From an uncultured Verrucomicrobiae bacterium (GTDB taxonomy: Bacteria; Verrucomicrobiota; Verrucomicrobiia; Chthoniobacterales; UBA10450): a stretch of DNA of 64,000 nucleotides. Where the stretch lies: the NCBI GenBank assembly GCA_963815455.1, contig CAWFGO010000003.1, positions 672,001 to 736,000 of the forward strand. The letters are read 5' to 3'. The notes under the pieces are model-generated. The model was not told the DNA's origin and did not search any database. It saw nothing but the letters and a program-made list of their open reading frames with translations. A program made the position numbers and the translations under genes. Shown piece after piece: positions 16,967-63,110 of this stretch (position 1 is its first letter; every line of letters begins with the position of its first letter).

Positions 16967-19900
16967 ATGAAAACAAATTCTTCGTCAGCAGCTGCGCGCG
17001 TCCTCCTGGTGACGCCGTTCTTAATAATCAGCCTGTTTTTTTTCGCGCTCGCATTCTCGAACTTGGTGGCGGGCGATTCCGGCCGGGCGATGACCAGCAG
17101 AAATTCCCCGGACGCCGTTGTCCCGACGAACTTCAGCGGCACATTCGATCCGCATGCCTATCCCTGCGCAACGGCGCGACATCATTTCATGGTGCCGGCC
17201 GGCCAGGCCCGCATTGTTGTTCATGTCGATGCTCTCCTTCCAGCCAACGATATCACCGTAACTTTGCTATACGGTCCCGATCCGCTGCCGGTATTCGTGC
17301 AAACGGAAGACACCGGCGTGGGTTCGGAGGTCCTTACTTACTCGCCGGGAGCAGTGCCGGCGGGCGAATACCAGGTGCAGATTTGCCAGGCCGGCAATGC
17401 GGCAGTGTCGATGCCCCCGTATGATTACAACGGAGTTTTCGCTTATGACGATGCCGGAGTCGGGACGCCCCCTCCGCCGACAGGGCCTCTCACTGCAGCG
17501 CCTCAGGACCCCGGCGCGAAAGTTGGTTACGAAAATTTTGAGCCACCGGGAGTTCTGACACCGACAGTCGTCACGAGCTCCGGTGGTGTAACGGTGGAAT
17601 ATCTGGGGCGCTACGCGATCGAGCCTTCGATCGGTGCGAACTGGAACACCGGCACGATCAGTTATCAAAGCGATCTGGAGACATTATTCGTTACCTTCGA
17701 CGATTCCTGTTCGTTAATGACTCCCAAGGCGACCTGGGTCAACCGGCCGGCCAATATCTCGATCCTGGTCGATAGCGATCCGATTCTTTTTACCGATCGG
17801 CAAACCAATCGGACCTTTGCCTCGTCGCTGACGCTACTGAGTCCGAGCACGGCGAAGAATGCTTATACCGATAACGACGGCCTGAACTGGACACCGACCC
17901 AGACCGGCGGCATCGCCTCGGCGGTCGATCACCAGACAATCGGTGGCGGGCCCTTTCATGCGCCGCTGATTCCGCCGCCGCCTCCGGCCTATCAGAATGC
18001 TGTGTATTATTGCTCGCAAGACATCGCCTTTGCTTCCTGCGCGCTGAGTGTTGATGGCGGCCTTACTTATGGCCCGGCCATTCCGATGTACGCTCTTACT
18101 GCCTGCGGAGGATTGCATGGACACGTCAAGGTGGCGCCTGATGGAACGGTCTATCTCCCGAACCGCTCCTGTAGCGGAGCCCAATCCGTTGTCGTGTCGG
18201 AGGACAACGGAACAACGTGGCAAGTGCGCCCGGTCCATACGCTCACCCAAAGTGCCGCTCCATCGACAGTGGGGAGTGGTGACGACCCGGCGGTTTCCAT
18301 CGACAGCGCCGGCAAGGTTTATTTCGCGTTCTCAAACTTCGGCACCCAAGCGGGCGTTGCCGTCTCGAGCGATCATGGATTGACCTGGACCAACATGGTT
18401 GACGTTGGTGCTCCATATGGCCTCAACAACGTCTGTTTTCCAGCCGCCACTGCCGGCGATGCCGGTCGGGCAGCAGTCACGTTCTATGGCTCGGTCACGC
18501 CTAACGGCGGAGCAAATGGAAATTCCAACAACGGAACGTTCAACGGGGTGTGGCATCTCTTTGTCGCTCACACCTTCGACGGAGGATCGACATGGACAAC
18601 CACAGACGTAACCCCGACGATGCCGATGCAGCGCAGTGGTCTGTTGCGCGGCGGCGGCGCCGATGCCTGGCGGAATCTGGCAGATTTCTATGATCTCACG
18701 ACGGACAAGGATGGCCGGGTTCTCGTTGGCTACAGCAACGGATGCGCCGGTGGAAATTGTGGACAGGCGCCGGTCAATCCTGACGGCACTTCTCCAGTAA
18801 AAGGCAACGCCTATAGCTCGGTGGCATCGATTGCCCGGCAGTCGAGCGGTCGCAGGATGCTTGCCGCCCACGATCCGGGTTCGCTCACATCTGAGCCGGG
18901 AATGCCATTCGTGACTCACTTGCGAAAAGGAAACAGCGTTAGCCTGATGTGGAATCAAGCCGACACCGGAAATTCGCCGATCACCGGATATCAGATACTG
19001 CGCAGCACAACGCCCGGGACCGAAACACCGTTCGCGACCGTGACAGGCACGCAAACTGGAGGCAGTTATACCGACACCACGGCGACCGATCGGACAGTGA
19101 CGTATTATTACAAGGTTGTCGCCCAAAATGGCGTGGGCAATTCATGCCCGAATAATGAGATCGCGGCGCCCTTTATTGGCGACACCTGCACAGGCCTCAT
19201 CATTCATCGCAACGATCCGTCGCACCCGGAAAGTACCGGAGGGGGCAGTGCCGGCCAGCCTCCCACTCCACAACTTCTGATCGATTACATTGCCGTGGGC
19301 GAACCGGCCGGCACCGATAATCTCGTGTTCAAAATGAAGCTGGTCGATTTGAGCACGCTCCCGCCGAATAGCCGGTGGCGTATTTCGTGGGATTGGTACA
19401 ACCCGACCCTCGACACGCAGCTCTATTACATCGGGATGAGGACCGATGAAAACGGCGCGGTCTCGTTCGAATATGGCACGCTGGCCGATGCCGGCGTTCC
19501 AGCCGTGCTCGTGCTTGGGGAGACGATGCGCGGTCCGTGTTTGCCGGAGACCAATTACTCGAGCGACGGCACGATTACCATGTACGTTCCCCGATCGGCG
19601 GTGGGCAATCCGCAGCCGGGCGACCTGTTAGGCGCAATCGCTGGCAAGACGATCACAGGCGATACGCCGGATACCAACACATTGGAACGTTCCACCTCGT
19701 TTGTGGATCACACATTCATCAAAGGCACGGCCGACACCGCCTATCCCGCCGCGACCTACACGATCGTCGGCAACACCACCTGTCCCTCGGGCGTTATCGT
19801 ACCGGTGGGCGCGGTGTCGCGCAAAACTCACGGCAGCGCGGGCGATTGGGATATTGATCTCCCACTCACTGGCAACCCCGGCATTGAATGTCGGAAGGGC

Positions 19901-20320
19901 CAGGGCGCCAATTCAAATCAACACAAGGTGATCGTGACCTTCAATAATCCCGTTACGATCAATGGAAATCCGCAGGCTACCGTCACATCGGGAAATGGGC
20001 AGGTCGACAACGTCGCCATTAATGGATCGGTAGTGACTGTCGATCTTAGCGGCATCGATAACGCGCAGACAATTGCGCTTACATTGAACAATGTGACCGA
20101 TGGCACAAACGCCGGCAACGTCACCGTGCCGATGAGCGTTCTCCTAGGCGATACCAATGCCAACCGCCTAGTTAACAGCTCGGACATCAGCCAGACCAAG
20201 GCGCAAAGTGGAAATGCCGTTAGCGCATCCAATTTCCGTGAGGACGTCAATGCGAACGGTGAAATCAACAGCTCCGATATCGCCGTAGTCAAAGCCCAAT
20301 CGGGGACAGCGCTTCCGTAG
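16967..20320 (+). CDS. Large secreted protein: Asp-box/BNR propeller, FN3 and C-terminal Ig-like + dockerin module
   Basis: Signal peptide; Asp-boxes SVDGGLTY, SEDNGTTW, SSDHGLTW, TFDGGSTW; FN3 (YQILRS...YYYKVVAQN); C-terminal VSRKTHG...GDTNANRLVNSSD...DVNANGEINSSD. Confidence 0.85.
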   Translation: MKTNSSSAAARVLLVTPFLIISLFFFALAFSNLVAGDSGRAMTSRNSPDAVVPTNFSGTFDPHAYPCATARHHFMVPAGQARIVVHVDALLPANDITVTLLYGPDPLPVFVQTEDTGVGSEVLTYSPGAVPAGEYQVQICQAGNAAVSMPPYDYNGVFAYDDAGVGTPPPPTGPLTAAPQDPGAKVGYENFEPPGVLTPTVVTSSGGVTVEYLGRYAIEPSIGANWNTGTISYQSDLETLFVTFDDSCSLMTPKATWVNRPANISILVDSDPILFTDRQTNRTFASSLTLLSPSTAKNAYTDNDGLNWTPTQTGGIASAVDHQTIGGGPFHAPLIPPPPPAYQNAVYYCSQDIAFASCALSVDGGLTYGPAIPMYALTACGGLHGHVKVAPDGTVYLPNRSCSGAQSVVVSEDNGTTWQVRPVHTLTQSAAPSTVGSGDDPAVSIDSAGKVYFAFSNFGTQAGVAVSSDHGLTWTNMVDVGAPYGLNNVCFPAATAGDAGRAAVTFYGSVTPNGGANGNSNNGTFNGVWHLFVAHTFDGGSTWTTTDVTPTMPMQRSGLLRGGGADAWRNLADFYDLTTDKDGRVLVGYSNGCAGGNCGQAPVNPDGTSPVKGNAYSSVASIARQSSGRRMLAAHDPGSLTSEPGMPFVTHLRKGNSVSLMWNQADTGNSPITGYQILRSTTPGTETPFATVTGTQTGGSYTDTTATDRTVTYYYKVVAQNGVGNSCPNNEIAAPFIGDTCTGLIIHRNDPSHPESTGGGSAGQPPTPQLLIDYIAVGEPAGTDNLVFKMKLVDLSTLPPNSRWRISWDWYNPTLDTQLYYIGMRTDENGAVSFEYGTLADAGVPAVLVLGETMRGPCLPETNYSSDGTITMYVPRSAVGNPQPGDLLGAIAGKTITGDTPDTNTLERSTSFVDHTFIKGTADTAYPAATYTIVGNTTCPSGVIVPVGAVSRKTHGSAGDWDIDLPLTGNPGIECRKGQGANSNQHKVIVTFNNPVTINGNPQATVTSGNGQVDNVAINGSVVTVDLSGIDNAQTIALTLNNVTDGTNAGNVTVPMSVLLGDTNANRLVNSSDISQTKAQSGNAVSASNFREDVNANGEINSSDIAVVKAQSGTALP

Positions 20321-52337: not shown

Positions 52338-52982
52338 TCAAAAGAGATGCAGCCCTTGTTTCGATCTCTTTCGATTGTTTGGCCGCATCGAGGGAGGAAG
52401 ACTGCAATATGTTATTAGAAGATTTCCGAGCTCTAGGAGAGCGGCGGTTTTTTTCCCAACTTGCTTGGGCAACTCGGCTCCCGATTCCCGGCCGGTCGGG
52501 TCGATAACATAGAACTGCGCGCGCATACCTTCGAACATTATCTCGTCGGAATTCGCTTCGGGCCGCGCATCGCCTATCATTGCTGACCAAGTCTTCTCGA
52601 TTGCACGCGCTGCCGCAGCAGGCAACGAAGCTTCACACTTTTGAACTTTGATATGAGTCGGCACCTTCTTGTCCCGGGCAAAGGGCCAGAGCATTTGGGG
52701 TGGCTCGGCAATGGTCACGCAAAACTGGTTCCGCTTTGAATCGCACCGATGCACTGAGATGACTCTTTCGACACCCCAATAACCAGGTATTTGCACCATT
52801 CGTGCAATTTCGCCTCGCGCTACAAACAATTTACGTCGCACCAGCTTGTCATAACTTGTATCAATGCCGAAGGCAGAGCTGAATGGGACGAGATGATCGT
52901 CTGGGGTCATGCCGGGGCAGCAACTTGCGGCCGCGAAAATTAGACTGCCCACGATGCTCGAAACTAAATATTTCCTCGCCAT
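52338..52982 (-). CDS. Putative orphan immunity protein (exported), homologous to 56711-57347
   Basis: Signal-like N-terminus; AIEKTWSAMI...LLELGNLLITYC aligns by eye with AVQRAWASML...FTDLGFALADYC. Confidence 0.65.
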   Translation of the reverse strand: MARKYLVSSIVGSLIFAAASCCPGMTPDDHLVPFSSAFGIDTSYDKLVRRKLFVARGEIARMVQIPGYWGVERVISVHRCDSKRNQFCVTIAEPPQMLWPFARDKKVPTHIKVQKCEASLPAAAARAIEKTWSAMIGDARPEANSDEIMFEGMRAQFYVIDPTGRESGAELPKQVGKKTAALLELGNLLITYCSLPPSMRPNNRKRSKQGLHLF

Positions 52983-53155: not shown

Positions 53156-53647
53156 TCATTGGGATTTTGACAGAATCTCCTTCTTTAGGAATTCTAAACG
53201 TGTGTGGAGGTTTTCGGCATTTTCCAAGCTAGGGGGAACATTGACCGGTATCAGCTGATCGACTGAACGTCCTGCTCTGGCCGCTTCAACCCACTCGCGC
53301 ATCGCCCCAATATAGGCATCTAGAGCGCAAGCCGCGTTTGGAGCATTTTCGGTGGTAATGTAAGCAGGTGGTAAATCTCCCACGATTACCCAAAGCCATT
53401 CGTCTACGTCGCTACGCGAGGGGACGATATGGAATAGAAAAACCCCGACCACACCGCCAACTCCAAGGCCCAGAAAGGACTCACGTATGCCGCGATTCCA
53501 GGCAAACGAAGAAAGAAAAGCTTTCGCCTCAGCTAGCATTCCACGTAACAGCACCGAGTCCTCTTGGTCTTCACCCTGCATTAGATTGGCGGAAGTGAGC
53601 TTTGAGAATTCAATAGCTTCTCTCCTCTTACTACGGTTTGGTTCCAT
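53156..53647 (-). CDS. DUF4826-like protein (possible immunity cassette)
   Basis: WLWVIVGDLPPAY motif; start ATG 53647 (the upstream ORF extension is translated repeat). Confidence 0.65.
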   Translation of the reverse strand: MEPNRSKRREAIEFSKLTSANLMQGEDQEDSVLLRGMLAEAKAFLSSFAWNRGIRESFLGLGVGGVVGVFLFHIVPSRSDVDEWLWVIVGDLPPAYITTENAPNAACALDAYIGAMREWVEAARAGRSVDQLIPVNVPPSLENAENLHTRLEFLKKEILSKSQ

Positions 53648-53653
53648 AAATTC

Positions 53654-54879
53654 GGGGGAAAGGAAAGGGGAAAGGGGAAAGGGGGTCAGAAAGGGGGTCA
53701 GAAAGGGGGTCATGTCTTTATTCTTGTCGGGGAAAGGGGAAAGGGGGTCAGAAAGGGGAAAGGGGGTCATGTCTTTATTCTTGTCGTGCTCGGGCTTCGA
53801 TCTCTTTCAGATGCTTGGAAAGTTGCGCTTGGTTAGCCAGGTCATCAATCCGGCTGCACAGCCGACTGACATGGCTGTCGTTTCCCATTGCCAACTGCTC
53901 TCCTATCCAGCGTAGTGAAACCCCGGTCCGGTTCTTGATTAAGTGACCAATCGCGCGCTTGCGCCAATCGCTCTTTTTAAGTTTGGGCAGGTCTCTCTTC
54001 TCCAGGTTCCACTGCTTCAACCCAGCTCTGAGTAAACGCTCAGCGCTCCATGCCCCGTGATCGCCCCAAGTCTCCACCGGCCCCGATTTTCGCAGCCCGG
54101 CATCGCTCAATCGATCCATTAGCCTCAGCGCCCGATCTCGAAATTGCTCGCCGCCCAAAATCCAGCCCCGCCGCAATTCACCCGGCAATGGACCGAGGCT
54201 GCGGCCCGGCGGGTTTTCTTTGGCGCGCTCTTGCAGCCGCTTTACGTATTGTCGCCGGTGGGAGCCGCGATCACTCCAGCCCAGCTCACCTAAGACCGTT
54301 TTCACTTCCAACCAATTCGGCCGGTTACGAGCCCCCGGCCCGTACCAGTTGAAACTGCTCCAGCGATAGCTGCTTAAAGGTCTCTTGCTCGTCAAATGCG
54401 CCCGGGCCGGATTGAGATGAATGTAGTCCGACACCGTTGCCAGGTAGCCCCGCTCTTCGGGATCGATCAGCAGCGATTTATAACGTCCGGCAAAGAGATG
54501 TCCGCTCAAACGATGCCGGCGATTGTAGCGGGCCGTGTAGGTGGCTTGAAACCAATGCATCCCACGCACCAGATTGGCTTTCGGGGTCTCTACCAGCAGG
54601 TGGTAATGATTGCTCATCAAGACATAGGCGTGCACTCGCCAGCCAGTGCGCTGACAAATCTCGCCCAGTGTAGCCAGGAACATTTCCCGATCCCTGTCAT
54701 CGAGGAAGATCGCTTCCCGCCGATCGCCCCGGCAAAGCAGGTGATAAAGCGCCCCCTCAAATTCTATCCGCGGCATTCTGGCCATCGAACAACCATTAGC
54801 TGATTATCCCACAATGACAAGAATAAAGACATGACCCCTATTTTACTTATTTTACTATTTGACCCCTATTTTACTATTT
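53654..54879 (-). mobile_element. Y1 HUH transposase element with 23-bp inverted ends and stuttered flanks
   Basis: ggggtcatgtctttattcttgtc at 53706-53728 and 53763-53785; its exact reverse complement at 54816-54838; partial end duplications outside both ends. Confidence 0.85.
53775..54785 (-). CDS. Y1 HUH transposase (RAYT-like) with C-terminal HTH
   Basis: YHLLCRG, YVLMSNHYHLL (HUH), GHLFAGRYKS, YIHLNP, YRWSS; C-terminal SLRWIGEQL..VSR. Confidence 0.9.
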   Translation of the reverse strand: MARMPRIEFEGALYHLLCRGDRREAIFLDDRDREMFLATLGEICQRTGWRVHAYVLMSNHYHLLVETPKANLVRGMHWFQATYTARYNRRHRLSGHLFAGRYKSLLIDPEERGYLATVSDYIHLNPARAHLTSKRPLSSYRWSSFNWYGPGARNRPNWLEVKTVLGELGWSDRGSHRRQYVKRLQERAKENPPGRSLGPLPGELRRGWILGGEQFRDRALRLMDRLSDAGLRKSGPVETWGDHGAWSAERLLRAGLKQWNLEKRDLPKLKKSDWRKRAIGHLIKNRTGVSLRWIGEQLAMGNDSHVSRLCSRIDDLANQAQLSKHLKEIEARARQE

Positions 54880-54885
54880 CGAGCT

Positions 54886-55302
54886 TCACCGAGATCTAGA
54901 CCGCGCACGAACAGCATCGGGTCTTCGCTCATGAAGCGGCCGATAGTCGGATGATAGGCACGGGCGCGATATTCGTGAGAACCCGAACTGTGGCGCATAC
55001 TCGCGGCCGGTGAAGAGGAAGCGATTATTAATCAGTGACGAGGGATGAGTGATGTGGGACGAGTCGTAAATTGTGGGCGTTCCAAATGCGTCATACCGAT
55101 ATGATTCGAGGATTGTTCCATCGCCGCCAGTGACCACGATCACGCTGCCCTCGTGGTCCTGCATCGGGTATTGGCCAGACCCGTTGTTGCTCCGGGCGAT
55201 GATCTCATCGATCCCGCGCCCGTACACATTGGTCGAGGGCGTGCCGCCGCTGGGATCGAACTCGTAGATCGGACGTTCCCCGTCGTAGATGTAATAGGTC
55301 AA
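54886..55302 (-). pseudogene. Orphan RHS core fragment truncated before its toxin tip
   Basis: TYYIYDGERP...QDHEGSV...YRYDAFG...NRFLFTGREY; stops after EDPMLFVR at the transposase end. Confidence 0.8.
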
Positions 55303-55341: not shown

Positions 55342-55668
55342 TCATTCGTCAGTTCTCCATTTCGACCGACTTATTCTGTGAGTATCGATAAAACCATCTA
55401 TCTTGCCTGAACAACGGTTCACGTGCACGCTGTAAACGGGGATTGCCTCACGCCGGTGCGGATCATTATACGACACTGCATACAAGGGAACCTTCGGCCC
55501 GGATTCAGGAACGAAAGTATCTTTGATGACTCGAATCGTGTAGTCCCGCGGCAGGGTGATTTTTCGTCGATTGATCTCGGCATTGGCTATGCCAATTACC
55601 TGTTCGTTGCTCAGGTACGTGCAGCAGCCAGAGAGAAAAAACGCGCACATCAGAAGCAGTGGTTTCAT
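55342..55668 (-). CDS. Putative lipoprotein immunity protein for the HEXXH toxin
   Basis: Lipobox FLSGC; start overlaps the stop of the upstream toxin module. Confidence 0.7.
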   Translation of the reverse strand: MKPLLLMCAFFLSGCCTYLSNEQVIGIANAEINRRKITLPRDYTIRVIKDTFVPESGPKVPLYAVSYNDPHRREAIPVYSVHVNRCSGKIDGFIDTHRISRSKWRTDE

Positions 55669-56730
55669 CAGTGTCCAGCGTCCCAGCGATTGATGGGAAC
55701 ACCCTTGTAAGATTTGCGATCCTCTAGCTTTAAACCTCGCCTCACAGGATTTTCATTATCGCGCACATTATGACCTCGGTATTCATTTTCGTCTCTTCCT
55801 CCCGCAAAGTGGCCAACCTCGTGAAACACGGTTGTCGCACGCCCTTTGACTCCATCGGGCGGCAATTCTGTCGGATGGTGGTTAAAATCTGCTCGGCTCT
55901 TTGGATCAAGAAAAGCGGGGTCATGGGGATCAAGCCGGAGAATTTTTTCCTTAGGATAGAATCCGGTCGGATGTGTCTTGTCGGTGGCCGCAACTCTCAA
56001 ATCTCCTGGCATATTAGCTAATTCGTTGCCTCGTTTGCTCGTCGACGAACCAAGTTTTATCGCTTCATTAAACTTCGCTTGCGCGGCTGCGCCAAACGAT
56101 TCATCAAAGAAAAATTCAATCAGCCCTAATGGATCAAATCTATCAAGCGGATCGTTAGAGCAGTATCGAAACAGGTTTAGCTCGCCTTGATCAGGAGACT
56201 TCCAGAATGACCATTCCTCTTTCGATTTGCCGCCTTCGGGAGCCTTGGCGTCGGACGAATCTGCGACCGGCTTATCGAGGCCGATCCGCCGCACAAACAG
56301 ATTCGGATCTTCGCTCATGAAGCGGCCAATCGTCGGATGATAAGCCCTCGCGCGGGACCCGTAGAAGCCGAACTGCGGCGTGTACTCGCGGCCAGTGAAG
56401 AGGAAGCGATTGTTGATCGCAGTGGTTGATAGTTGATTGTTCGACGGATCGCGAATGGTCGGCGCGCCGAAGGCGTCGTAGCGGTACCATTCCAGGATAG
56501 AGCCGTCGCCGCCGGTGACCACGATCACGCTGCCTTCATGGTCCTGCATGAAATACTGACCCGAGCCGTTATTGCTGCGATAGAGAATCTCATCGATCCC
56601 GCGCCCGTAAACATTGATCGAAGGCGTGCCGCCGTTCGGATCAAACTCGTAGATCGGCCGTTCCCCGTCGTAGATGTAATAGATCACCGAACTGGCGCCG
56701 GTGGTTCGCTTCACGCACCGGCCCTGATCG
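55668..56730 (-). CDS. Orphan RHS core + HEXXH (M91-like) metallopeptidase toxin tip
   Basis: RHS core from GRCVKRT to DPLGL; tip contains FHEVGH...NENPVRRGLKLEDRKSY; no convincing start codon. Confidence 0.8.
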
Positions 56731-57347
56731 CGAAATCTTCTAGCCAGCGCATGAGCTTTTTCCGCTTCTCGGGTCTTTCGGCCTCCGGAGTCTGGCAATA
56801 ATCTGCAAGCGCAAATCCCAAATCTGTAAACTCTTTCGGCAATCCTTTTGTTGGACTCCATATTTGACCGTAAACGCCACCCAAGCCGGTAATCCAAACG
56901 GAAAATTCAACATTCCAGCCATCTCCGCCCTAACTTATTTTGTGGATACCGCGTCTTGAGAAGCATACTTGCCCAAGCGCGCTGAACCGCCACTGCAAAA
57001 TCTGCGTCGATAGGGACGTTAACCTGGCTTTCAGAAATAGGACCGCGCTTGCCACGAGATATCTTAATAAGCGTGATGAAATTGTCTATCGACCGCTCGT
57101 GATCATAGTTCTTGTAACCTTTTCCCCAGACCGAAACCGCGAGATCACCGACTGCCGAACCGTTGCAAATCATATGACCCTTGCCCCATTTATTTCCCAG
57201 TAGTCTCTGCACGGCTGCTTCATATTCACGTCCGTCCGGCGACACTGGAATGAGATATCTCGGTTCCGTCTGATGTTTTTTCAATTGTATCGGTTCCACC
57301 GCAATCACCGATGACGTGAAGAAAACAAGAATGAAAAATCGCTTCAT
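56711..57347 (-). CDS. Cognate immunity protein of the full-length RHS (frameshift at ~56930)
   Basis: Signal peptide; a frameshift after YPQNKL continues GGDGWNVEFSVW...DLGFALADYC...RAGA* to 56711. Confidence 0.7.
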
Positions 57348-57368: not shown

Positions 57369-60300
57369 TTACTTTCGTTGTAGGCCCGGCAGCTTAACAG
57401 CCGGTCTTTTCTCGACTTCTTCCCACTTTCCATTCTTTAACCTTTCGGTGACTGAATCCGCGTGATGATCACGCTGTCGCGCGTCATCAGACTGTCGATA
57501 GCGCTCCGTAATTTTTCCATCTTTTGAAGTCGTGTAAACTGTGGTGTTGGATTTATCCCCATTGTTCTTGTCTGGGGGGCTTGTCAGCGTGCCCCTCGGG
57601 TCCGGTCGCCCTTGTGGGTCGGTTGTGTTGCTATTGGTGTGAACGTGGGCAAATGAGTCCCTCTTGCCGTTTTCGCCGCCGGGAGGATCCGGATACAATA
57701 TCCTTTGGTGAGTCATGTCCCCGTTAACGGGCTCACCGACGCTCGTATCCTTCGAATATTGAATGCGACCATTAAGCGGCCCGATCGTCTTGCCGCGCTC
57801 CAAGCCAACGCCTTTTCCGTCGCTATTATTATTGCTAATATCTCGGACGACTTTGAGGGCTTCGAGTGAAACACGATCCACTTCTGGACTCACCACAGTT
57901 GGAGCCAGCCCCATGGGATCGCTAAGGTCCCACGGATCGTTTTTGACGTACCGATAGAGATTGTAATCGTCCGCATCGAAGAGTTTAGGGTCCTCAGACA
58001 TGAACCGCCCGATGCCGGGATGATAGGCGCGGGCGCGGTATTCATAGAAGCCGAAGAGTGGAATGTATTCCCTGCCGGTGAAGAGAAAGCGATTATTGAT
58101 CTGTGTCGTCGGGAATGAAGTTCCGGCACCGTCCTTGATCGACATCGGCGCGCCGAAGGCATCGTAGCGGTACCATTCCAAGAGCGCGCCGTTGCCCCCC
58201 AGAACGGCAATCACACTTCCCTCGTGGTCCTGCATGAAATGCTGACCCGAGCCGTGATTGCTGCGATAGAGAATTTCATCGATACCGCGCCCGTAAATAT
58301 TCGTCGAAGGTGTGCCGCCGTTTGGATCGAACTCATAGATTGGTTTCTCGCCATCATAAATGTAATACGTGACCGACATTCCCGGCCCATCTCCCCAGGT
58401 GCGCCGCACCAACCGGCCCAGTGCATCGTAGCCCAGCCGGTAGAGATGCAGCCCGCTGGCGTCGGTCATCGACACGCGCGCCAGCCGCGTGTCGTTTAGA
58501 TAAACGTAATTCACACCCTGATAAGCGCTGATCTCGTGATTCGCCCCGTTCTGGATCGACGTGTCCCCGTGAGCGATCGTGTATTGATTCAGGCCATTCG
58601 GCTCGTAATTGAACGGCTCGCCGTCTGCCGTCACGCCCGCTTCGCCGGTCCGATTGCCCGCTTTATCGAGCGCGTAATTCAGACTGCGCCTGGTTGCGGA
58701 CTGCGGCGCTTGGCCACCGCCTTCATTGCTGTACGTTTCCTCAGCAATCGTCGAATCAGCCATGCCGGTTTTGTAAGCAATCGCTCGCACCGTCTTCTCT
58801 CCATTCAGCGGCACTCCCACATTGAAACTCCCACCGGATGAAATCAACATCCCATTGGTGCTGCTGGGAATAGTTCCGTTGGTCGTATAACGGATCGACG
58901 CGCCAGCGGTCGAACAGGTGACGGTGACCGATTGCGAAACCCCGTAGAGATTACACCCCGGGGGATTGAGCACCGGAGTGGCTACTTGATTTCCCGGTGG
59001 CGGCGTGGGCGTGGCGCTCGGCGTTGGCGTCGGGCTCGATACCGGCAACGCGTATTCCGCGCGCTGGAGTTCGCCATCGAGATAATAGCCAAACCAATCG
59101 ATCGCCGCCGTGTCTTCATCGCGGTTAACCGAACTCAGCCGGTTCATCATATCGTAACCGTACACTTCGCGCGTAAACCAATTCCGCGTCGTAGGGGTGC
59201 CGTAGGGCATCGGCATCGCGCTGGGAAGGTTGACTTTCAGCGCCCCGATGCGATTCAGCGCATCCGGCTCGTAGTCGATCCAAGTCCCGTTTGCGAAACT
59301 GTCGCGCCTGGTAACATTTGAGGCTTCATCGTACCCGTATTGATATGAAGGACTCTGGCCACCCGTCGGCAAGATCGTCTTGAGCCGGCCCAAACTGTCG
59401 TAAGTCTGGGTGTAATCGTATCCGACTCCGGGAACCCAAAGATGCCTTACTCGGCCGTCATTATCGTGTTCGTAAGACACGGCTTGCGTTGTGCTTGGAG
59501 GCGGGGAAGCAATGCCTGTTCCTGCGTTCACCGTTGCCACTTTGTTGTCGGCATTATCAATATCTCCAGTGACATTTGCATCGCACCGGAAGTTGCTTGA
59601 GCTAACGGGCTGACCGATCTGCGACTGAATCATGCTGGCATCGCTCGAAGTAACCGAGCCGGTGGCGTTCGCGTCGCCCCATAAAACTCGCATCGGAATT
59701 GCGATCTCGTCAGAAATTCCACCATCACTGACCGAGAGCATCACGACAAGCTTCTGCGCCGTGCTTACGTTCACCAGATCGATAGTGATGGCCGTTCCGC
59801 CCGTTTCTGTAGACGCAGATGTGGTGGCGCTAACAGTGCCGATTCCGGCCGATACGATGGCATTACCGTTGAGGTTCACCAGGTGCTGGAAAGTAGCGAC
59901 GATCTTATAAGTCCCGCCGTTTCGGCTTTCAATTCCCGGGTCTCCCGTTAGTGGCAACGCAATGTCAAAATCACCTGCGCTCCCGTGCGTCCGCCGAGAG
60001 ACGACACTCGGTCGGTCAATCAACGGAACCGGAGTGGGCGCGGCACCGGGCATCGTCTGCTGATCCAGCGTCATCCGTCCGGCATCGTCGTAGCCCCGCA
60101 CGACAGTTGAGTATGGATTCTGAGCAAAAGTCAGCCGCCCGGCCCAATCGTAATCAAAATCGCTGAAATCAATTCCGTTGCTCCAGCGCATCGCGGTCTT
60201 CCGGTTGCGCGAGTCGTAGGCGAACGTCTGGATCGCGCCGCCGGGCGCGCGCCGGGCGATCAGGTTCTTATTGCCATCGTAGGTCCAGGTCTGGGTATCG

Positions 60301-63110
60301 CGGGTTCCTCCCGGTAGAGGCGGTGGATAGGTCATCGTTTCCTTTAACCCTGACGGCTCGTAGGTGAAGTCTGTCTCATTTCCATTCCCGTCTCTGACCT
60401 TCGAGAGCAGGCTCGCGCCGTGAACGCCAGCGGAATGATAGAAAAACTGGGTGATCACATAATCGCTGTCCGGCCCTTCCCCGAGCATCGGCACTTTGTC
60501 CATGGTGATTCGATTCAGCCCATCATAAGTCTTGAACGCGGTGGTGCCGTCCGGGCGAATGATGCGGGTTAGATTCAGCCCGTCCTCATAAAAAAACTGC
60601 GTCCGGTGATTGAGCGGCTCACGGACTTCCGTTTTTCGGTTTCGACTGTCGTAATCCGTTTCGGTCACCCAATGCGAGGGACGTGGATCGATCACTCTGG
60701 TCTGATTGCCAACGGCATCGTAAGCGAAGCTGGTTATCGAAGTGTCGGACCCACTGCCGACAGTTGTGGACAATTTACGGAAGTCGCCATCGTAGTTGTT
60801 TGTAGTGATAATGCTCTGCTCCTTCGCGACGTGCTGGCGGACAGAGTTGGTTGTGTGCGAGTACGAATTATTCTGGCTGGTCGGATCGCCGGTCGTCGGC
60901 TTGTAATCGAACGTTTCGAAATGCCCGAGCGGGTCTGTGATTTTGGTCACCCGGCCATAATCGTCATACTCATATCTCGTTCGCTGGCGTAGCTCATTTT
61001 CCTCCCAAATTTTATCCCCGTAAATATTGAACCCGAACGATTGATATCTGCCGTCGGGATGGGTGATCTTGGTCACCAGCCCGCGCCCGGGGCAAGGCTG
61101 ACCAGTATTTGGCCCTTCCACCGCAATGTCGTACTCATACGTCGTCGTGTTCTGGCGCGGATCGGTTTCCGTCTTGACCCTGTCGATCCACGCATTGCCG
61201 GCAATCGGATCATTCGGCTCGTAATAGCTGTAGGTCGTTTTCGGCTCCGACTCGACCGGCGCTGAACTCCAAGTCGGGTTCCATTTCTTGATTAGCAGGC
61301 CGCGCGAATCGTATTGATAATGCACATAAGCGCCGTTCTTCATCCGGTGCCAACTGACTTGGCCGTGGCCGTTCCCGTCGTCGTAACCGACTTCCTCATA
61401 AGCTAGCAACGTGCTGCCATTAGCCGCCGAATCCTTGTAGTCGGTGCGTGTTATTCGGTGCAGGCCGTCACGCGTGTGCTCTGTTACGCTGCCGCGTTCA
61501 TCGGTGACACGATGCACATAGTGCGGATCGCTTTCGTAATCGTAGTGAATCGTCTTCCCATCGGGATGAATGATGTCGGTGATTTCACCGATCCCCTCGG
61601 TCGCATTGGGTCCCCACGCATGACGCATATAGCGTGTGGTGTAGAGGGGATCACCAAGCCCGCTGCTAGTGCGAGCATCGGTAACGCGATTCACGAAGTT
61701 TTGAGAGTCGTAATCCAGGTAAGTCGTGTGCCCCTCGAAATCCTCGTACGATAACAAGAGCTGTGGGTCGTCGCAGCCGCCGCAGGGCTCGTCTGGCGCG
61801 CAAGGTGGCAGCCGAGTGTACTGAAATGTTCGGGTCAGACTTACCCGCGTTGTCTCCTCCCGAGAGTCCCAGTTCCCGGCAACGCTGGAGATGATGGTAT
61901 TTCCGTCAAAGGTTTCCTCCCGTTTTATCACTCCATGTGGAACACTCGAGACCACTCCATTATGTGGATTCCTGATCGTTCCGCTCTGATACCCGTACTG
62001 GATTCGTCGCATGGCCCCGCCTTGATGCCGCATGTCGTCGGCAGTCTTAAGAAGTGGCCATTCTCTTGGATTTGCTTGGCCGTTGACCCACTCCGCGATG
62101 TTGTCTTCCCGATAAGTGTAGATAGCCGACGTGCCATCGCTGTAATGCACTTCGCTTAGCATCATCTTTTCGCGGCATCCGAAAATGCATCCCCCGCCTG
62201 GATAGATCGGGCAATACTGATAGGTAACATTGTCGATTCGGTTCCCGCGGCCATCAAAAGCCTCCACTTTGATGAGCAAGCGTGGATTCCAATAATCAGT
62301 GCTCCATGGGTTATCGACGTACGTAAATAGCAGAAACCGGCCCCCGGGTTCAGTGACTTTCCAAACTTTGCCATAGTTATCATAGTCGATTGTTGTGGTT
62401 TTTCCGAAAGGATCGGCAATAGCAACTGCACGATGACTGGCCGAATCAAAAATGACTGTCCCACCGTCGGCCATGCGAAAATGAGTAGCGTCCTCCCACT
62501 TTTCTGAAGTCCCTCGATCCCAGCCGCACGTGCCGAGCTCGGCACCGCTGGGCATGAAAACAATACCTGAAAAGTCTGGCCGAGGCGCTTCGCCAAGCCA
62601 CATGTACTCATGAGTCCAACCTGGACAGATGCGAGGCGACCCGTCCTCGGGCGTGGTTCGGCTGTTCCAGTAGCGAGTCATTTTAAGAGGATATGCGCCG
62701 ATGCAGCCCGGCACGACAATGTCGTCGATCACGCGCTTGGCATTCCTGGAAAGAGGGTCGTAATTCCCCCCAGTGGTGATCTGCCCGTTGAAAATTCCGG
62801 CCACACCGGTGGGACTGTTCTGGCCAAAAGCAAGTTGGGGCGACCCTCCATCAGCAGGCGCTTCTTCCATGGGACCCTCCGGCTCCTCGGGTGCTTCTGT
62901 GCAGTTAGTCGCTACGACCTCTTCTTGCGCAAACATCCGCGGCGCAGGCATTGCAACCACGAGCGACCCAACCAGTGCGCTCAGCCAGAGCACTCGGGCA
63001 AGATTTTTCGTGCTGAAGTTAACACTCGCCGCGGCGAGCCCGATGCGGAGGCTTCGCGATATTGGAATCACGGAAGTGCATCTTAAGGCAACGGATAACA
63101 GATATGGCAA
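57369..63110 (-). CDS. RHS/YD-repeat polymorphic toxin with internal dockerin and FN3-like inserts and a JAB/DUF4329-like tip
   Basis: Many YD repeats; RHS core FTGREY...RARAYHP..GRFMSEDP...DPMGL; tip E...HVHT...SPPD; hydrophobic N-terminal leader. Confidence 0.92.
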   Translation of the reverse strand: MPYLLSVALRCTSVIPISRSLRIGLAAASVNFSTKNLARVLWLSALVGSLVVAMPAPRMFAQEEVVATNCTEAPEEPEGPMEEAPADGGSPQLAFGQNSPTGVAGIFNGQITTGGNYDPLSRNAKRVIDDIVVPGCIGAYPLKMTRYWNSRTTPEDGSPRICPGWTHEYMWLGEAPRPDFSGIVFMPSGAELGTCGWDRGTSEKWEDATHFRMADGGTVIFDSASHRAVAIADPFGKTTTIDYDNYGKVWKVTEPGGRFLLFTYVDNPWSTDYWNPRLLIKVEAFDGRGNRIDNVTYQYCPIYPGGGCIFGCREKMMLSEVHYSDGTSAIYTYREDNIAEWVNGQANPREWPLLKTADDMRHQGGAMRRIQYGYQSGTIRNPHNGVVSSVPHGVIKREETFDGNTIISSVAGNWDSREETTRVSLTRTFQYTRLPPCAPDEPCGGCDDPQLLLSYEDFEGHTTYLDYDSQNFVNRVTDARTSSGLGDPLYTTRYMRHAWGPNATEGIGEITDIIHPDGKTIHYDYESDPHYVHRVTDERGSVTEHTRDGLHRITRTDYKDSAANGSTLLAYEEVGYDDGNGHGQVSWHRMKNGAYVHYQYDSRGLLIKKWNPTWSSAPVESEPKTTYSYYEPNDPIAGNAWIDRVKTETDPRQNTTTYEYDIAVEGPNTGQPCPGRGLVTKITHPDGRYQSFGFNIYGDKIWEENELRQRTRYEYDDYGRVTKITDPLGHFETFDYKPTTGDPTSQNNSYSHTTNSVRQHVAKEQSIITTNNYDGDFRKLSTTVGSGSDTSITSFAYDAVGNQTRVIDPRPSHWVTETDYDSRNRKTEVREPLNHRTQFFYEDGLNLTRIIRPDGTTAFKTYDGLNRITMDKVPMLGEGPDSDYVITQFFYHSAGVHGASLLSKVRDGNGNETDFTYEPSGLKETMTYPPPLPGGTRDTQTWTYDGNKNLIARRAPGGAIQTFAYDSRNRKTAMRWSNGIDFSDFDYDWAGRLTFAQNPYSTVVRGYDDAGRMTLDQQTMPGAAPTPVPLIDRPSVVSRRTHGSAGDFDIALPLTGDPGIESRNGGTYKIVATFQHLVNLNGNAIVSAGIGTVSATTSASTETGGTAITIDLVNVSTAQKLVVMLSVSDGGISDEIAIPMRVLWGDANATGSVTSSDASMIQSQIGQPVSSSNFRCDANVTGDIDNADNKVATVNAGTGIASPPPSTTQAVSYEHDNDGRVRHLWVPGVGYDYTQTYDSLGRLKTILPTGGQSPSYQYGYDEASNVTRRDSFANGTWIDYEPDALNRIGALKVNLPSAMPMPYGTPTTRNWFTREVYGYDMMNRLSSVNRDEDTAAIDWFGYYLDGELQRAEYALPVSSPTPTPSATPTPPPGNQVATPVLNPPGCNLYGVSQSVTVTCSTAGASIRYTTNGTIPSSTNGMLISSGGSFNVGVPLNGEKTVRAIAYKTGMADSTIAEETYSNEGGGQAPQSATRRSLNYALDKAGNRTGEAGVTADGEPFNYEPNGLNQYTIAHGDTSIQNGANHEISAYQGVNYVYLNDTRLARVSMTDASGLHLYRLGYDALGRLVRRTWGDGPGMSVTYYIYDGEKPIYEFDPNGGTPSTNIYGRGIDEILYRSNHGSGQHFMQDHEGSVIAVLGGNGALLEWYRYDAFGAPMSIKDGAGTSFPTTQINNRFLFTGREYIPLFGFYEYRARAYHPGIGRFMSEDPKLFDADDYNLYRYVKNDPWDLSDPMGLAPTVVSPEVDRVSLEALKVVRDISNNNSDGKGVGLERGKTIGPLNGRIQYSKDTSVGEPVNGDMTHQRILYPDPPGGENGKRDSFAHVHTNSNTTDPQGRPDPRGTLTSPPDKNNGDKSNTTVYTTSKDGKITERYRQSDDARQRDHHADSVTERLKNGKWEEVEKRPAVKLPGLQRK

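Follow-up and report, generated by a model that had tools for sequence, protein, structure and literature searches.

How can a toxin-like protein of the Rhs family carry a dockerin inside its shell, and what would that dockerin hold on to? The question arises from the window, a 64,000-nt stretch of the genome of an uncultured Verrucomicrobiae bacterium (G000, 90% complete). Its first-pass annotation described an Rhs gene with two foreign modules in the YD-repeat run, and proposed that the shell is tethered by a dockerin to a cohesin-type surface scaffold (Table 1).

Table 1 Features of the window and domain C genes of G000. Plain positions are those of the window; C1 and C3 are contigs.
Feature	Position	Strand	Basis
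Rhs/YD-repeat polymorphic toxin-like gene, 1913 aa	57369..63110	-	Pfam, NCBIfam, AlphaFold2/Foldseek
Sec-like leader, aa 1-61	62928..63110	-	judged by eye; TTG start uncertain
Insert 1, X-dockerin, aa 1023-1207, in place of an 11-15-aa hairpin turn	59490..60044	-	alignment, model
Ig-like X module, aa ~1033-1141, predicted all-beta	59688..60014	-	profile, model
Dockerin-like double Ca-loop/helix domain, aa ~1144-1196	59523..59681	-	profile, Pfam, Atlas, model
Insert 2, PT linker + Fn3_assoc/CHB_HEX_C module, aa 1355-1472, second variable loop	58695..59048	-	Pfam, alignment
Rhs-associated core ending DPMGL (predicted autocleavage site)	57906..58166	-	NCBIfam
Variable C-terminal putative toxin domain, 178 aa, HxH motif	57369..57905	-	no Pfam match
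Putative immunity gene, hydrophobic N-terminus, 21 nt downstream of Rhs	56907..57347	-	position; no family match
Orphan Rhs core + different C-terminal domain, HExxH-like motif	55668..56897	-	NCBIfam; 75% DNA identity to main core
Putative immunity gene of orphan, lipobox-like N-terminus	55342..55668	-	inferred
Second, broken orphan Rhs-core fragment	54886..55302	-	DNA identity to cores
Y1/REP-associated tyrosine transposase-like gene	53775..54785	-	Pfam, NCBIfam
Paralogous C-terminal X-dockerin of the secreted protein at 16967-20320	19826..20317	+	sequence homology
Domain C genes with signal and PEP-CTERM, intact (L004, L005, L006, L007 label the four domain C loci)	C1:59829-60587; C1:322718-323533
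Putative cohesin-XDoc adaptors (domain C + XDoc fusions)	C3:75296-76450; C1:1028689-1030635
Domain C copy split across two frames	C1:13701-14470

An Rhs toxin-like gene and its locus

The Rhs gene is a single open frame, and all eight quoted motifs that were checked lie where the first-pass annotation had placed them, including YDDAGR...TMPG (aa 1007-1022), VSRRTHG (aa 1037, window 60002), WGDANATG (aa 1144), CDANVTGD (within aa 1173-1188), TQAVSYEHD (aa 1208, window 59489), VATPVLNP (aa 1376, window 58985), and SIRYTTNG (aa 1405). Pfam matched RHS_repeat (2e-38), CHB_HEX_C_1 (1e-10, aa 1389-1455), Fn3_assoc (2e-9), and Dockerin_1 (E 0.003, aa 1145-1188), and NCBIfam placed Rhs_assc_core at aa 1649-1735. 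The locus has YD repeats with an Rhs-associated core ending in DPxG, a variable C-terminus, a small gene downstream, and orphan modules, together the marks of an Rhs/YD polymorphic toxin; cleavage at DPMGL is presumed from what is known of the family. The hydrophobic Sec-like leader reported in the first pass was recognized again by eye, and the orthologues have clear Sec-type leaders and terminate in mutually unrelated tails. The protein is likely a Sec-exported polymorphic toxin. Since neither its tail nor the putative immunity proteins had a Pfam match, the toxin and immunity roles are assigned from gene position. An orphan tail in genome G026 (L003:2837-4006) shares an HxH-like motif with the tail of the window protein and has a weak Prok-JAB match (E 0.007).

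A toxin gene followed by a small gene, orphan cores, and another small gene is the typical order of a polymorphic toxin locus. The Rhs cores of the window array share 71-80% DNA identity, and the signal-like or lipobox-like N-termini of the two putative immunity proteins hint at toxins acting outside the cytoplasm. No relationship was detectable between 56907-57347 and 52338-52982. The transposase-like gene trails the Rhs/orphan array in G027 (L002:12443-13483) as it does in the window, and a short tandem low-complexity repeat (TPF/LSP-like) occupies window 53650-53770, at the 5' end of the 53156-53770 frame.

Neither PAAR nor VgrG, which the first pass had not recognized in the protein, was found there by Pfam or NCBIfam, and searches of G000 (90% complete) for VipB, PAAR, and VgrG found none. 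The genome does have exosortases and secretins. With no PAAR, VgrG, or clade N-terminus in the protein and no T6SS markers found in G000, T6SS delivery was rejected. Membership of the teneurin-like proteins was rejected as well, as the protein has no TTR, FN-plug, and NHL propeller and has only ~100 aa ahead of its shell region.

The two shell inserts and their distribution

The YD run is cleanly broken at two hairpin turns, as the first-pass annotation had noticed. Its claim that insert 1 is a dockerin needs narrowing: of the ~185 inserted residues, about 110 make up an X module of Ig-like type and the dockerin takes only the final ~55, so that the unit is an X-dockerin (XDoc). The homology claimed with the C-terminus of the 16967-20320 protein was borne out (E 1.5e-27). 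Among solved structures, a profile of 55 XDoc modules matches dockerins (2ccl_B, 6.5e-9) as well as 2b59_B, the X-dockerin of CipA, the latter over positions 62-165. In the HMM scan proposed in the first pass, RHS and CHB_HEX_C_1 matched, but Dockerin_1 scored 18.1 bits in the whole protein and 21.1 bits with the module alone, both below the Pfam cut-off of 22.9. PF00404 at E<=0.01 matches 54 of the 55 family copies (best 2.9e-11), and Atlas places insert 1 at 0.96 beside Dockerin_1 clusters of Verrucomicrobiota. The duplicated Ca-loop and helix with D1 and D12, by which dockerins are defined, is found in the window copy. At the sequence level, insert 1 is confirmed as an Ig-like X plus dockerin module of the dockerin family. 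In G000, 49 frames match the XDoc profile, and the module is C-terminal in 45 of them, in line with the first-pass statement that dockerins are normally terminal. The other four comprise two Rhs proteins, one fusion with domain C (see below), and one partial, apparently broken gene.

Insert 2 proved to be what the first pass had read, a PT linker followed by a chitobiase-C/FN3-like module, with the Fn3_assoc/CHB_HEX_C_1 signal within aa 1389-1460. Among the 30 best loci of the window's Rhs clade, several of which stop short of this site, 10 have PT+Fn3 here (read by eye) and four have acidic linkers (L183, L189, L191, L199). The Fn3/CHB module is repeated in tandem, in three to four copies or more, in L198 (G268) and L200 (G339), as a stalk-like outgrowth of the shell. 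Other Rhs proteins of G000 show a third decoration, a jelly-roll/CBM-like insert of ~160 aa that interrupts the YD run (C1:438442-441621, C1:463179-465308, and C1:466201-467598; L010, L011).

In an AlphaFold2 model of aa 640-1738, the strands flanking the inserts have pLDDT ~89-90, insert 1 forms a beta domain of its own with two helices (pLDDT ~40-73), and insert 2 is modelled at pLDDT 61-90 with weak linkers. Foldseek searches with this model returned Rhs cores first (E 2.8e-37; TMq 0.19-0.53 for Rhs/Tc matches). The computed volume of the inserts and tail together is about 60,000 A3, at 1.21 A3/Da. The cavity measures 25,000 A3 in the T6SS Rhs core and 37,000 A3 in the larger BC shell, according to the available part of bioRxiv 2024.02.26.582050. 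Because the inserts and toxin exceed these cavities and tandem Fn3 arrays occur at site 2 in relatives, we infer that both inserts project outward from the shell.

The count of Rhs plus dockerin architectures called for in the first pass gave an XDoc at the same Rhs turn in at least 9 of 355 family genomes and 6 of 36 genera, a lower bound with four candidates scored per genome. The window's Rhs clade was matched in 66/355 family genomes. Seven of its 30 best loci have the XDoc (~190 aa) and the other 23 have an 11-15-aa turn; the XDoc is therefore dispensable in this clade. XDoc occurs without Fn3 in G002 and G027, Fn3 without XDoc in G026, and both together in the window protein only, among the loci compared in the clade. 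Both inserts are modular, with gain and loss. In a tree of 27 cores with the inserts masked (L198, L200, L197, L194, and L195 left out), the window protein groups with seven XDoc carriers (support 0.925), and one carrier is set apart.

In a second Rhs clade, the XDoc lies at a different loop, between YDxYG and FAFTG, in five of seven matched genomes: G000, G208 (three copies including an orphan), and G071, with fragments in G022 and G082. The matches in the remaining two genomes were ordinary terminal XDoc modules. Judged from the sequences, the insertion in this second clade is independent. The G000 representative (C1:593872-596535, L008) carries its XDoc at the loop adjoining the core, and its tail resembles that of an Rhs fragment at C1:1670971-1672095.

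Domain C, a candidate cohesin partner

The suggestion that a cohesin scaffold is shared with other secreted proteins is partly supported, in altered form. PF00963 found no cohesin in G000 (90% complete) or in five XDoc-rich relatives; it was positive in 13 of 201 phylum genomes, none of them in the sampled rows of the order of G000. What was found is an XDoc-linked PEP-CTERM candidate with a predicted cohesin fold. An XDoc fusion protein led to this ~160-aa domain, denoted domain C, which has 573 library matches; among the best 150 of these, 110 end in a PEP-CTERM-like tail and six are XDoc fusions. Domain C was detected in 67/355 family genomes with a 19-row profile, a tally that takes in the unpublished G173, and in three of five further family genomes with an 84-row profile. 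A scan of genome contigs with a single domain C protein returned the query's own record alone. Given the signal peptide, the PEP-CTERM tail, and an exosortase in the genome, the domain C protein is likely anchored to the cell surface by its tail.

The AlphaFold model of domain C has pLDDT 97. In a VIA-align comparison with 48,161 chains, ranks 1-17 were cohesins or cellulosome components (Z 13.5-9.9), led by 6kgc_A (Z 13.5, rmsd 2.3, 135 of 163 aligned), and the first unrelated fold scored Z 9.8. Rank 16, titled 'protein-protein interaction module', we take to be a cohesin. By sequence, domain C does not match PF00963, and HMM searches of the PDB gave weak matches, mostly antibody light chains, and no solved cohesin. 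An hhalign comparison with a poor 8-row cohesin-like alignment was not significant (probability 0.04), and the Atlas lead was 0.80 to a cluster with 19% Cohesin. With no sequence-level match to cohesins, the assignment rests on the predicted fold, by which domain C would be a cohesin-fold family missed by Pfam.

Of 83 distinct full-length domain C genes, two were fusions and 80 had enough flank for comparison. In 37/80 loci, a same-strand XDoc has its end no more than 800 nt upstream of the domain C gene; an XDoc lies downstream in 3/80 and on the opposite strand in 1/80, and 43/80 have no XDoc gene just upstream. For comparison, the upstream arrangement applies to one of the 27 PEP-CTERM genes of G000 that lack domain C, and it recurred in two of four held-out domain C loci. 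The loci are related and partly hand-picked, so that the adjacency count does not amount to a statistical test. One PEP-CTERM protein without domain C (G000 C1:1115660-1116568, L068) is encoded directly downstream of an XDoc gene. Complex predictions of XDoc with domain C gave 0.69, 0.27, and 0.19, a median of 0.27 against a mark of 0.32, with controls not folded, a result that weighs on neither side.

Surface docking, its rivals, and known systems

Our main reading, which we put at about one chance in two, is that the window protein is a polymorphic toxin, exported by Sec and tied to the surface of the producing cell through dockerin-cohesin coupling of its loop-borne XDoc. It would be exported by Sec and cross the outer membrane via a secretin system. 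The shell would fold around the C-terminal domain, which would be cut off at DPMGL, and both inserts would point outward. Ca-dependent XDoc-cohesin binding would then retain the loaded cage on the outside of the producing cell, as it would the ~45 other proteins with an XDoc, and the Fn3 module on its PT linker may act as a spacer or contact module. The toxin would be freed against neighbours, with the producer protected by the downstream gene. The XDoc may have moved into a loop because a caged, cleaved, and swappable toxin fills the C-terminal position that it normally holds. This would bear on how Sec-exported Rhs toxins stay at the surface or find their targets without a T6SS.

Somewhat more tentatively, we propose an undescribed cellulosome-like display, in which PEP-CTERM cohesins and adaptors would serve dozens of XDoc-tagged proteins. 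Rhs proteins would have joined it at least twice by taking the tag into shell loops, their loaded cages docked on the producer or aimed at relatives with the same cohesin; if true, this would be a scaffold-docked route of toxin delivery independent of a T6SS. Domain C would supply a candidate partner for many 'orphan' dockerins of these Verrucomicrobiota, which would indicate cohesin-dockerin display in Gram-negative cells, with anchoring by exosortase.

A released cage might instead use its dockerin to attach to cohesins that other cells of its family display, so that the toxin is directed at close competitors. The 10 Rhs-borne dockerins vary more at recognition positions 10/11 than terminal copies do, and XDoc and domain C are almost confined to the window's family among 61 relatives examined. 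G124 and G190 (90-95% complete) have Rhs+XDoc, and neither domain C nor PF00963 was found in them. Polymorphic toxins are mostly used among relatives, according to the available text of PMC4436062. However, the producer's own cohesins would capture the cage first, and at least seven of the nine Rhs+XDoc genomes encode domain C themselves (G000, G002, G177, G185, G186, G205, and G027). We consider kin-targeting unlikely as the leading account; it is compatible with docking on the producer and does not exclude it.

A shade less probable is that the XDoc works without cohesins, as a Ca-stabilised binder of matrix or envelope or as a secretion-recognition tag, and that domain C, though of cohesin fold, has another ligand. 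Domain C has no sequence similarity to cohesins, only about two intact anchored domain C genes face 49 XDoc proteins in G000, and the nearly invariant Trp (W39) of the XDoc could bind a glycan; many non-cellulosomal dockerins are not known to have a partner. However, gene adjacency (37/80 versus 1/27), the repeated fusion of XDoc with domain C, and the cohesin fold of the latter all indicate a pair, and the internal position of the XDoc in the window protein speaks against a cleaved C-terminal sorting signal.

It is more improbable still that the XDoc-cohesin system is real and the window copy is decaying, carried along in a loop that tolerates it. Besides its score below the Pfam cut-off, the window dockerin carries Thr at position 5 in each of its two loops, a pattern that sets it apart from all 45 non-Rhs copies; most clade members do without an XDoc, and the site-2 loop also accepts acidic linkers. 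Against decay, D1 and D12 are kept in both loops of all 10 Rhs-borne copies, on cores only ~40-45% identical, and insertion took place at two different loops with the frames intact. An assembly chimera or mis-joined genes, a refutation the first pass had allowed for, we give next to no weight and rejected, since the same turn is occupied in nine of 355 genomes, the junctions are identical in the alignment of same-site orthologues (eight other genomes, five other genera), and the GC of the inserts is similar to that of their flanks.

Docking on the producer, our preferred reading, has partial parallels. The T6SS Rhs effectors (8QJA, 8QJB-D, 7Q97, 7PQ5, 8H8A/B, Tse5, and Tse15) share with the window locus the YD shell, a core ending in DPxG, a variable C-terminus, and immunity and orphan modules. 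In contrast, the window protein has a Sec-like leader, no PAAR or VgrG, and no T6SS markers found in its genome. Their surface is 'very smooth' and undecorated in the available part of bioRxiv 2024.02.26.582050, whereas the window protein has folded domains in its shell loops. YD shells, in contrast to these smooth cages, thus tolerate folded domains at defined loops.

Bacterial teneurin-like proteins (PMC13018210, available part) and WapA-type toxins are Sec-exported YD shells with immunity genes, as proposed here. Adhesion modules are thought to govern surface display of the teneurin-like toxins (same part). These modules lie N-terminal to the shell (PMC13018210 and PMC6425310, available parts), whereas those of the window protein lie inside the YD run and its N-terminus is a leader and plug alone. 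The word dockerin does not occur in the available text of PMC13018210, nor do dockerin or cohesin in that of PMC3482391.

The first-pass annotation regarded the delivery mode as undescribed. This has to be softened, as Rhs+dockerin+cohesin proteins are described in cellulosomal clostridia, which makes the idea less unprecedented than claimed; the insertion within a loop still differs. In the available parts of the sources, ScaO/ScaP of Clostridium alkalicellulosi fuse Rhs with dockerin or X-dockerin and cohesin, and binding of type II cohesins has been demonstrated for the ScaP2 XDoc (PMC6780208); Acetivibrio cellulolyticus has an unconventional scaffoldin with Rhs, dockerin, and cohesin (PMC3413522). 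ScaO/ScaP thus share Rhs repeats and a dockerin or X-dockerin with the window protein. However, in that available text their dockerin is listed before RhsA, whereas here it interrupts the YD run, and they belong to Gram-positive, SLH-anchored cellulosomes with Pfam-type cohesins, unlike the window system; a toxin role does not come up in that text. In the literature covered, from which subscription papers are mostly absent, we found nothing on dockerins inserted within YD shells or on cohesin, dockerin, and PEP-CTERM combined.

Cellulosomal XDoc/cohesin anchoring (CipA XDoc 2B59; 6KGC, 1OHZ) resembles G000 in the X plus dockerin tag on many secreted proteins, the single-cohesin anchors, and the cohesin-dockerin adaptors. 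For Planctomycetes, a 'planctosome' built on cohesins and dockerins has been put forward (PMC6461901, available part). From both, G000 would differ in its PEP-CTERM/exosortase anchor, a cohesin invisible to PF00963, and clients that include Rhs toxins. In the TcB-TcC shell of Tc toxins, the RHS cocoon docks via an attached beta-propeller (PMC6425310, available part), a likeness to the docking proposed here. The docking domain and partner are different there, and the window protein is one polypeptide with no TcA implied. The available text of PMC13483458 also mentions PT-TG toxins that contain cohesin and dockerin domains.
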